This document shows, piece after piece, positions 403 to 3,400 of a stretch of 4,210 nucleotides of DNA; position 1 is the first letter of the stretch, and every line of letters begins with the position of its first letter. The notes beneath the pieces are model-generated. The model did not search any database, had not been told where the DNA came from, and saw nothing but the letters and a program-made list of their open reading frames with translations. Both the position numbers and the translations under genes were made by a program. The stretch lies in the IMG/VR virus record IMGVR_UViG_2534681674_000013, positions 1-4,210 of that record; one strand, written 5' to 3'. Source of the DNA: a virus. Its lineage: Duplodnaviria; Heunggongvirae; Uroviricota; Caudoviricetes.

Positions 403-3400
403 TCAGCTGATACTGATACCTGCTGTGGATTTCTTCATCACCACAACCAGCAGATCGCTGATACTGGTTGTTGGTGTCCAGTTATTCGCTCCTGATGAAG
501 ATACGGTGAATGTCAGTGTCCCCTGTCCGGCAGGCATATCTATAACTGAGGAAAATACGCCCTGAGCATCCGTCGTGGACTGATTAAAAATCTCCTGACC
601 ATTGCGGGTCACTCTTAACCGGCAGGTTGAATACCAGTATGACTGTTGGTTATTACTGTTGAAATTCTCATGCTTACCACCGCGGAATAACACTGGCGGT
701 ATCATGACCTGCCGGTCAAATTTCTGATCATCACTGATTCTTACCGTGATGGTGCCACTGGCATAACTGTTCGTGCGGGGGAAAGACTTGCTGACCGTTT
801 TGACAATATCGCCTTCAATCTGATTGGCTGACAGTTTCCCCTTAATCTGACAGTTTTCATTAATCGTGACATTGTTGAGCGTCCCTGAATTTGCATTCAC
901 ATTACCGCTGATATCCGCATTTTTAGCGGTCAGCTTTCCGTCCGGTGTCAGGGAAAATGCCGGCGGATTTCCACCGCTGGTAATGGTGGGAGCCGTCAGG
1001 CGTTTCAGGAACACGTCGTTCATGAATATCTGGTTGCCCTGCGCCACAAACATCGGCGTTTCATTCCCGTTTGCCGGGTCAATAAACGCGATACGGTTAG
1101 CGGCAACCAGAAACTGGCTCAGTTTGCCTTCCTCCGTGTCCTCCATGCTGAGGCCAATACCCGCGACATAATGTTTGCCGTCTTTGGTCTGCTCAATTTT
1201 GACGCCCCACATGGCATTCCATTTATCGTTAGCGTCCTTCCACTCTTTCGAAAACTCATCCAGTCTGCTGGCGTTATCCTCCGTCAGATCGACTTTTTCC
1301 AGCAGCTCCTTGCCGAGATGAGATTCGGTTATCTTGCCTTTGAAAAAATCCAGATAACCTTCCGCATCATCGCTCGCCCGACCGACGGCCTCCACGAATG
1401 CCGATTTGCCAACAGTGTTCACACTGCGGATATAAAAGTAATAATCATGGCCCGGTTTGATATTGATACTGGCGGCTATCCAGTACAGCCCCGTGCCAAG
1501 GTAGCGGGCTGTGGTTTCAACCTGCCTGATATCGGTAATCCGCTTTTCCGAGAACCAGAACTCAAACTGTACCGTCGGGTCATAAACGGCAAGATGCGGC
1601 GTGGCGGTTATCTGAAAATAGCCCGGCGTCAGCTCAATCCTCGACGGTGCTGCCGGTGCGGCAATCCGGAACGATACCGACGCCGGATCACCCTGCTGCC
1701 CCCACGCATTTACCGCCCGGACTGTCAGCCTGTAGTTCCCCAGCGCCAGTTGCCTGAAGCGGTATGTGGTTTCCGTCGTCCGGGCCGTGCTGACCAGCCG
1801 CTCACTGCCGTCATCCGCTGTTACGGTCAGACGGAGCAGGAAGCTCACGCCCTTCACCACCTTCGGCGTGTCCCAGCGCGCCAGCACCTGATATTCCCCG
1901 CTGTCTGCGGTGACTTCGGCAGTCAGGTGCTGCACTGCCGGCGGGATGACGCTGTTCAGTGAGCCGGACATCGGCTCAAAGCGGGCCCCGTTATCCACAA
2001 TGGCTTCTTTTTCCGGCACATGCTGCACCGCCGTGATGGCAAAGGTGCCGTCCGTGTTTTCCCGGATGGAAACACAGCGGAACAGGCGACGACGCAGTGA
2101 CGGCAGGGAGAGTCCCCACACACCGTATGTCGCCACGCCATCCGGCAGGGTACTGACCTGTATCCGGTCCGGCGCGGGGTGTGCGGTGATGTCCACACTC
2201 ACCGGCTTACCGCTGCCGTTAATCAGGTTCACCGTCGATGTACCTGTCTCCGGCAGTGTCACCTCACGGTCCAGCGTCAGGGTGCGGCTGGCGGCATCAA
2301 TGGACAGGACACGTCCGCCGGTCATGGTCCCGGCATAGTCGTTATCACAGATTTCAATAATGTCACCGGGTGTGTGACGCAGCCCCTGTGACCCGAGCGT
2401 GAAATCCACCGTCTGCGTTTCCAGCAGTCCGGTCTTTATCACCCACAGCCCGGCACGGTGGGCCTGACCGCGACTGGTGCAACCGAACGCATCCATCTTC
2501 AGCAGGTTGCGCCCGTAGCGCAGTATGGCTTCCGGGTCTTCCACCAGTTCCGTGGAGGTCTGCCAGCCGTTCTGCGGGTCGGTGTAATTCACCTCCACCG
2601 CCGTGTGGCGGTCCTTCAGGGCGCTGAAGCTGTAGCGGAACCCCACGCCGTTATCATCCACCACCACATCGCTGCTGGTGTACGGCCACACCACATCCGA
2701 CGGACGGTCCTGAACGAACGTCAGCGTCTGGCCGTTCCATACCGGCATACAGCGCATCGCCGAGCAGAAATCACTGAGAACGTCCCACGCCTTACGCTGC
2801 TGTGACAGGTACGCATTAAACGTCATCCGCGGCTCTGTCCCTCCGAAGCCGTCCGGAACACGCTGGTCACAGTACTGCCCGATGGCATACAGCGCCCATT
2901 TGTCCACGTCCGCGGCCCCCAGGCGTTTCCCCATCCCGTAGCGCGGGTGGGTCAGCATGTCCCACAGACACCAGGCCGGGTTGTTGCTGTATGCCGGTTT
3001 CAGACTGCCGTCCCAGATGCCGCTGTACGTGCGTTTTTCCGGGTCGTAGTTTGACGGCACCTGGATGATGCGACCGCGGATATGGTAGTTCACCGTCATC
3101 TGCTGACCGCCGAACTGCTCCGCATCCACCTGCAGCCCCACAATGGCCGTGTTCGGGTAGCACTGTTTCACATCGATGATTTCGGTGTATGACGACCACA
3201 GCGTTCTGTTCTGCAGCTGGTCCGTGGTGCTGTCCGCCGTCTCCCGGACCATCCGGATGTTAAAGGGCCGCTCAGGCAGATTCTCCAGAATCACCGACGC
3301 CAGGTACTGTGAGGTGGTCTTGCCGTTAATGGTGACATCCTTTTCCGTCACCCAGTTACCGTTACGCTGCAACTGAATCAGCAGTCGGACAGAAGAGGGA

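Follow-up and report, generated by a model that had tools for sequence, protein, structure and literature searches.

The window, that is, the whole 4,210-nucleotide stretch of viral DNA that was analysed, carries all or part of three genes of a lambdoid tail region, all on the minus strand. In gene order, these are the 3′ end of I, a spacer, the complete J gene, a hairpin and the 5′ part of lom:

4210-4028, minus strand: 3′ end of the tail assembly gene I; its translation matches the C-termini of the lambda and F2_407 gpI proteins
3793..4027, minus strand: I–J spacer of 235 nt with two strong hairpins, given for context and outside the receptor module
403..3792, minus strand: J, the tail tip attachment (host specificity) gene; one intact open reading frame, recognized by its translation and its set of Pfam domains
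366..385, minus strand: terminator-like hairpin and T-run between J and lom
1..336, minus strand: 5′ part of lom (Ail/Lom outer-membrane beta-barrel), first 112 codons; Pfam PF06316, E 6e-63

The J reading frame runs uninterrupted from an ATG at 3792 to a stop codon at 405-403 and encodes 1129 amino acids. The protein is alignable to lambda gpJ over its entire length, and its Pfam domains follow the lambda order: FNIII-A_GpJ (PF24801), Phage-tail_3 (PF13550), Ig_J (PF24421), Ig_J_second (PF24489), Phage_Tail_Tip (PF09327) and Ig_GpJ_C (PF12421), each above its curated cut-off and all with E ≤ 1e-33. J therefore has the full ordered domain set of a lambda-type gpJ (hub, two FNIII/Ig domains, tail-tip fibre and C-terminal receptor-binding domain), and it stands in the I–J–lom context on one strand, an order also found in annotated relatives. 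The window has its nearest database relatives among the lambdoid prophages and the Stx-converting phages of E. coli, and the best whole-window match among complete E. coli genomes does not exceed 95.6%.

The I–J spacer is an observation of its own. It measures 235 nt as against 60 nt in lambda, and is unannotated, structured and repeated in STEC genomes; a structured spacer at this position did not appear in the literature reached in this analysis. A scan of the whole window against Rfam at E ≤ 1 returned one chance snoRNA match and no known RNA family in either the tip or the spacer. The small RNAs AgvB/AsxR, Pas and svsR were also sought here, and the published texts examined place none of them between I and J.

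Segments of J and the exchange of its tip

Amino acid identity between J and lambda gpJ (from NC_001416) was determined in 50-residue windows, and falls into three regimes. Over residues 1-620 it ranges from 0.48 to 0.92, mostly 0.7-0.9; over residues ~626-975 it rises to 0.90-1.00; and over residues ~1001-1125 it drops to 0.38-0.40. At the nucleotide level, the corresponding identities to lambda J are 76% (3792-1936), 95% (1935-850) and 55% (849-403). A max-chi-square scan against lambda placed one breakpoint at window position 849 (residue ~981; chi2 186, 83% versus 55% identity) and another at 1935 (residue ~619; chi2 173, 76% versus 95%). At the distal breakpoint, mismatches to lambda are sparse down to ~958, frequent from ~907 and dense below ~862, so that the loss of identity falls between ~910 and 849. 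The segments are as follows:

1936..3792, minus strand: N-terminal hub-domain segment, residues 1 to ~618, EHEC / Pankowvirus-type allele; 76% nucleotide identity to lambda
850..1935, minus strand: lambda-type FNIII-1/FNIII-2, alpha-helical shaft and beta-prism fibre, residues ~619-981; 95% nucleotide identity to lambda
823..1033, minus strand: conserved linker joining the fibre end to the tip start, where crossovers cluster; alignment columns invariant or nearly so across all tip classes
406..849, minus strand: receptor-binding domain (Ig-like beta-sandwich) of the A8/phi330 OmpC-binding class, identified by Pfam PF12421, PDB matches, AF2 and Foldseek

The domain names for the shaft and fibre are taken from PMC11101478. 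Most 50-residue windows of this segment are 96-100% identical to lambda at the protein level, and the hub segment matches WGPS8, phi330 and E. coli F2_407 at 85-100% nucleotide identity over most of its length (100- or 200-nt windows). By these identities J is a three-part mosaic: the hub is of the EHEC-phage type, the shaft of the lambda type and the tip of the OmpC type.

The original prediction, made from the letters of the DNA, had drawn a divergent C-terminal region of ~140-150 residues at 403-860, and its left boundary lies within ~11 nt of the best breakpoint estimate. The extent of the divergence, the lambda motif that it quoted (VFSRIVDMPAG) and its residue numbering are all correct, with NCQIKG starting at residue 980. 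It had also described the several hundred preceding residues as almost identical to lambda, which holds for ~360 residues (~619-975) and fails for the first ~618, where the allele is of the EHEC-phage type; the second breakpoint at ~1935 went unmentioned. The nucleotide comparison that it had proposed returned sharp breakpoints at ~1935 and ~849 and no uniform divergence along J, and with 38-40% amino acid identity the C-terminus is far from a near-copy of the LamB-binding domain of lambda.

Nucleotide composition does not mark the exchanged segment. The G+C content is 46.7% over 403-860, 51.7% over 891-1600 and 61% over 1601-3792, with values of 60-64% in the N-terminal two thirds of J; the tail-end DNA is visibly lower in G+C than the central part of the gene, as had been noted. 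The significant step lies at ~1600 (51.0% versus 63.9%, z = -3.9), within sequence that matches lambda at 95-100%, and the difference between the tip (403-849, 47.2%) and the adjoining lambda-identical DNA (850-1600, 51.0%) is not significant (z = -1.3). The G+C content of lambda J also drops toward the distal end of the gene (54.7% in its own tip, 58.3% in its own hub). The composition change had been offered as a sign of recombination; since the G+C content steps ~750 nt upstream of the homology breakpoint at ~849, within lambda-identical DNA, this argument was rejected.

Evidence for exchange came instead from the sliding nucleotide identity of the window against lambda and relatives, compared segment by segment:

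Hub, 3792 to ~2011: close to WGPS8, phi330 and F2_407 (85-100%); distant from lambda, Chlobot, PhiR70_1 and JNU (~58-90%)
Shaft, ~1935-850: close to lambda and JNU (92-100%); distant from WGPS8 and phi330 (56-84%, a figure that spans ~2010-911 minus one 200-nt stretch) and from Chlobot and PhiR70_1 (53-80%, spanning 1410-1011)
Tip and lom, ~910-1: close to Chlobot, PhiR70_1, F2_407, WGPS8, phi330 and JNU (92-100%); distant from lambda (~50%)

Each relative changes its relation to the window along J. Chlobot and PhiR70_1 are 98-100% identical to it over 1010-403, yet only 53-80% identical over the 400 nt just upstream (1410-1011). WGPS8 and phi330 share the tip at 92-100%, but diverge to 56-84% over about 2010-911. 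E. coli JNU is 95-100% identical over ~1810-1 and 60-84% upstream of ~2010, apart from an unrelated I–J spacer. J genes that differ in their bodies thus share the tip module and lom at 96-100% identity, which indicates modular recombination. The part of lom present in the window (1..336) is 94-100% identical to Chlobot, PhiR70_1, F2_407 and WGPS8 and ~50% identical to lambda; because lom changes allele along with the tip, the exchanged unit reaches past the J stop codon.

Near-identity to the window starts at ~1033 in Chlobot, ~886 in PhiR70_1, ~856 in F2_407 and ~823 in WGPS8. Since this linker (1033-823) encodes a peptide that varies little or not at all between tip classes, it is a natural substrate for homologous recombination, and we propose that the tip module entered J by such recombination in the linker just upstream (~823-1033), bringing lom along. 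A tip that evolved in situ from a lambda-like ancestor by diversifying selection, with no exchange, is barely credible. The most variable positions do cluster in and around the distal loops, as selection for receptor variation predicts, but identity to lambda falls from 95% to 55% within ~60 nt, at synonymous positions too, J bodies with 20-45% divergence immediately upstream carry the identical tip, and the downstream lom gene switches allele with the tip. The comparisons support the reading of the tip of J as a swapped-in receptor-binding module acquired by exchange. Acquisition by recombination had been proposed in the original prediction, and it is borne out by J genes (Chlobot, PhiR70_1 and WGPS8/phi330) that match the window at 98-100% in the tip and at only 53-80% upstream of it. 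That J genes are mosaics whose tips can be exchanged is well known.

The tip domain and its probable receptor

PF12421 (Ig_GpJ_C) covers residues 1007-1129 with E 1.2e-33 and 116.5 bits against a cut-off of 26.2, which places the tip in the same domain family as that of lambda. A phmmer search of PDB sequences with the last 165 residues retrieved the chain 'A8 gpJ 713' (9wca/9wcb) at E 2e-103, with matches at 165/165 aligned residues and one 2-residue gap, and lambda gpJ at only 8e-36. An AF2 monomer model of the tip domain (pLDDT 85.9) contains nine beta-strands, and the Foldseek neighbours of this model are 9WCB (98% identity) and 9WCA (97%), followed by the lambda structures 8XCK (closed state) and 8XCJ (LamB-bound), both at 46% identity and with E ~1e-16 to 1e-17. 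Structure prediction had been suggested as a check on the C-terminus, and its nearest structures are those of the OmpC class: the PDB titles describe 9WCB as 'Open state of A8 gpJ 713 central tail fiber with OmpC ... from E. coli EDL933' and 9WCA as the closed state.

A8 was made by joining the C-terminal parts of natural gpJ variants from E. coli phages to lambda gpJ (Brödel et al., Nature 2024, PMC11338833). It delivers DNA via OmpC into a lamB deletion strain and accepts most of 23 OmpC variants (PMC11338833), and the end of the 'GpJ A8' DNA in the supplement of that paper is the sequence of the window. Over residues 714-1129 the window protein differs from the 'A8 gpJ 713' chain by ~10 substitutions and the gap. 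Unlike A8, the window J lacks the 'TL' of GQGTLTLTFTV, has the EHEC-phage allele in its hub (residues 1-618) rather than that of lambda, and is natural, not engineered. With a lambda-type shaft and an A8-type tip, the C-terminal 420 residues of the window J are approximately a natural counterpart of the engineered A8 chimera.

A second, natural point of reference is the siphovirus vB_EcoS_phi330, a Stx2a Pankowvirus whose J is annotated as 'tail fiber protein' (PMC12502783). This phage forms no plaques on BW25113 with ompC deleted, and Plac-ompC rescues plaque formation (PMC12502783). Its J has the same hub type as the window (90-100% nucleotide identity over 3810-2011) and the same tip class; it differs in its non-lambda shaft (62-67% over 1610-1011). 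The two tips are separated only by TSTY for TNSY (2 substitutions) and by a 2-residue gap, phi330 retaining TL. The distal elements of the window tip are as follows:

763..774, minus strand: short distal loop TNSY, residues 1007-1010; TSTY in phi330
640..669, minus strand: distal hairpin, residues 1042-1051, an exact sequence match to phi330 E953-S962, in a stretch that ranks among the most variable of the aligned family
514..522, minus strand: place where 6 nt are lost in frame, a rare deletion (GQG(TL)TLTFTV in relatives, GQGTLTFTV here), just after the invariant DMPAGxG turn
472..489, minus strand: distal hairpin ANNWTP, residues 1102-1107, unchanged from phi330 A1015-P1020

The predicted OmpC contacts of phi330 are E953-S962, which would point into the barrel, and A1015-P1020, on the rim; none is predicted for the TSTY loop (PMC12502783). 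Both predicted contact hairpins are the same in the window as in phi330. The near-identity of the whole domain, distal hairpins included, places the tip in the A8/phi330 OmpC class. It does not belong with the LamB-binding tip of lambda, from which it is separated by 38-40% amino acid identity and by indels in the loop regions (compared with lambda gpJ residues ~985-1132, loops L1-L4). Given the near-identity to A8 and phi330 and the unchanged predicted contact hairpins, OmpC is the best-supported receptor. That the receptor would differ from that of lambda had been anticipated, and the match to two OmpC-using tips agrees with this. Taken together, positions 403-849 very probably encode an A8/phi330-class tip that docks on OmpC, not LamB, at the end of a trimeric lambda-type fibre, and that was acquired by recombination together with lom.

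The lambda tip (LamB; 8XCJ/8XCK; PMC11101478) resembles that of the window in its PF12421 domain, Ig-like fold and position, and in the conserved structural motifs DMPAGxG, FDRQ and C-terminal VxVxKK…GISI; it presumably shares the trigger mechanism as well. It differs in overall sequence (~40% amino acid and ~55% nucleotide identity), in its receptor, LamB, and in its four variable distal loops, which are unlike those of the window in both sequence and length. The phage 434 tip belongs to the same family, and OmpC has been reported as its target (PMC12502783); it is, however, only ~45% identical to the window tip at the amino acid level, and neither the loop sequences nor the predicted contacts are reported to be conserved (PMC12502783). 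OmpC use therefore spans several tip classes. The other tip classes share ~81%, 78%, 60%, 45% (including phage 434) and 43% (lambda) amino acid identity with the window tip. For the analysis of family variability, the homologous protein search gave fragments shorter than 300 residues, and frameshifted or chimeric assemblies (for example P0072, P0075, P0076, P0081 and P0089) were excluded. A bioRxiv preprint on receptor prediction (10.64898/2026.04.02.716166) was also considered and set aside, as its GpJ data concern Drexlerviridae, not lambdoid tips.

In lambda, the Ig-like tip engages the LamB trimer by inserting four distal loops; the three tips then widen at their base, their top tightens against the beta-prism fibre and the fibre twists, after which the helical shaft flips, the FNIII strings are freed and the hub opens (PMC11101478). 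The existence of a closed and an OmpC-bound open state of A8, according to the PDB titles, indicates the same relay with OmpC, and since the shaft and fibre of the window J are of the lambda type at 95% nucleotide identity, the same relay is expected here. We hypothesize that the variable distal hairpins of the Ig-like sandwich enter or grip the rim of the OmpC porin barrels, and that OmpC binding would spread the three tip domains at their base, so that the beta-prism fibre twists and the helical shaft flips; the FNIII strings would then be released, the hub would open and DNA would be ejected. Across the aligned family, variable segments alternate with the conserved ones DDQxFDRQ, NG and DMPAGxG, a pattern that would fit conserved turns facing the fibre and variable loops facing the receptor.

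The TL deletion allele and the distribution of the tip

At the site of the deletion, relatives read GGGACGCTGACACTGACATTC and the window reads GGGACACTGACATTC, in the context of an imperfect ACNCTG direct repeat. The loss of one unit of this repeat fits replication slippage. The two residues are kept in all 28 of the other aligned family members, in every class (GQGTLTLTFTV, or GRGNVILTFTL in lambda). The window thus departs from the canonical length of the DMPAGxG-xxTLxF segment, a departure at the level of the allele that leaves the assignment to the A8/phi330 class standing. The allele did not appear in the literature reached in this analysis.

Among the matches listed (30 phage records and 25 E. 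coli genomes), the copies are 6 nt longer than the query except in E. coli JNU, which is the single E. coli match listed at 100%; identity of at least 99% is found in 7 of 2,737 matching records. JNU shares ~1810-1 of the window at 95-100% but has a different, lambda-like hub, and the two hubs differ by ~25%. As the TL-less allele occurs on two J backgrounds, those of the window and of JNU, it must have spread by inheritance or transfer, and a single sequencing error does not account for it. AF2 monomer models with TL (a homologue) and without it show the same nine tip strands, the turn and the next strand each being shorter by one residue. The deletion sits in the strand that leads to the predicted rim-contacting ANNWTP hairpin, ~12 residues upstream of it.

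With the segment length fixed in 28/28 other members, the deletion could conceivably have reduced or altered OmpC binding. One form of this idea is that the tip is of the OmpC class by descent but functionally impaired, the 6-nt slippage deletion having shortened a constrained beta-hairpin in a decaying or cryptic prophage. The fixed length of the segment in all other family classes would be in line with this, as would the rarity of the allele, which is shared by JNU alone among the E. coli matches listed and occurs in none of the 30 phage-record matches listed, and the small number of matching records (7/2,737) at 99% identity or more, and so would the closeness of the site to the hairpin predicted to grip the OmpC rim. 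However, the J reading frame is intact across its 1129 residues, the loss of two residues preserves the in/out alternation of the beta-strand, and the model keeps its nine strands with a pLDDT of ~90 at the site, although model confidence is no proof of function; the occurrence of the allele on two J backgrounds whose hubs differ by ~25% further argues for an inherited or transferred sequence. We consider an impaired tip unlikely.

A deletion that alters specificity, such that the range of OmpC variants is narrowed or shifted or another porin is bound, would make this a distinct host-range allele. Small changes in the gpJ tip can shift the receptor, as in lambda reaching OmpF through point mutations (PMC11101478), and the A8 and 1A2 chimeras accept different OmpC variants (PMC11338833); the deletion also adjoins a predicted contact hairpin. 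Against this, every distal loop equals that of A8 and both predicted contact hairpins equal those of phi330, and, placed after a conserved turn, the deletion should by the alternation of loops face away from the receptor. Such a change of specificity is very improbable. It is likewise doubtful, though conceivable, that the deletion is a natural host-range allele that changes the OmpC variants accepted or the ease with which ejection is triggered. The window tip, deletion included, would probably still bind OmpC and trigger ejection.

At a threshold of at least 95% nucleotide identity, the tip class is present in ~1,500 of 5,426 complete E. coli genomes (~28%) and in 44 phage records. The module is a common and already characterised OmpC-binding type, and its recognition here is correct but ordinary and already known. 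The practical value is modest, as engineered delivery particles already use this tip class and its structure in complex with OmpC is already available. For the prophage itself, a likely receptor, OmpC, can be assigned to its tail tip from sequence alone. For the family, the locus is a clean, textbook-like example of how host range is exchanged as a module between lambdoid J genes: the crossovers fall in a conserved linker, and lom moves along with the tip.

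A second breakpoint and the G+C step within J

In the 1129-aa J homologue (window 403-3792, minus strand), a second sharp recombination breakpoint was located at window ~1935 (aa ~619), coinciding with the boundary between the N-terminal hub and FNIII-1. Upstream of this point J has an EHEC/Pankowvirus-type hub with 76% nucleotide identity to lambda; downstream it is lambda-type, with 95% nucleotide identity. The G+C content drops from ~64% to ~51% at window ~1600, inside the lambda-identical part of J and roughly at the FNIII-1/FNIII-2 boundary. The same step is seen in lambda, so the two J genes have this property in common.

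The tip and the adjoining lom region

Two features were mapped in the OmpC-class receptor-binding end of J (the tip) and downstream of it:

514-522, minus strand: rare in-frame 6-nt (TL) deletion within the DMPAGxG-xxTLxF segment of the tip
385-366, minus strand: J-lom terminator hairpin

The DMPAGxG-xxTLxF segment is otherwise fixed in length. Among the matches listed, the TL deletion is common only to the window and E. coli JNU (NZ_CP083263), and the JNU J that carries it has a different hub from that of the window. The lom gene and the J-lom terminator hairpin (window 1-385) move together with the tip module: this region is 94-100% identical in every relative having the same tip, and the identity of lom to its lambda counterpart is ~50%.

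In the record of phage phi330 (PV189401.1, 550-3965), J is labelled as a 1042-aa 'tail fiber protein', and a 'hypothetical protein' (550-900) lies before it and overlaps it. Such an annotation suggests a frameshift or sequencing error close to the 5' end of the phi330 J, and is the reason for the offset residue numbers in the paper on phi330 and OmpC (PMC12502783).

A structured spacer between I and J

The genes I and J are separated by 235 nt, compared to 60 nt in lambda, and the G+C content of this spacer is 44%. It includes two hairpins:

3793-4027, minus strand: I-J spacer
about 4015-3989, minus strand: 9-bp hairpin
3857-3834, minus strand: strong terminator-like hairpin (10-bp stem) with a T-run

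The start of J lies only ~40 nt downstream of the terminator-like hairpin, and RNA folding of the spacer gave z = -3.5. In comparisons with the window, the spacer is absent from lambda, Chlobot and PhiR70_1; WGPS8 and F2_407 keep it at 96-100% identity. No separate feature is annotated for it, and it has no match in Rfam. Across complete E. coli genomes it is present in 706 of 5,426 (median 3 copies, maximum 9). One possible reading is that the spacer is a prophage sRNA or a moron.
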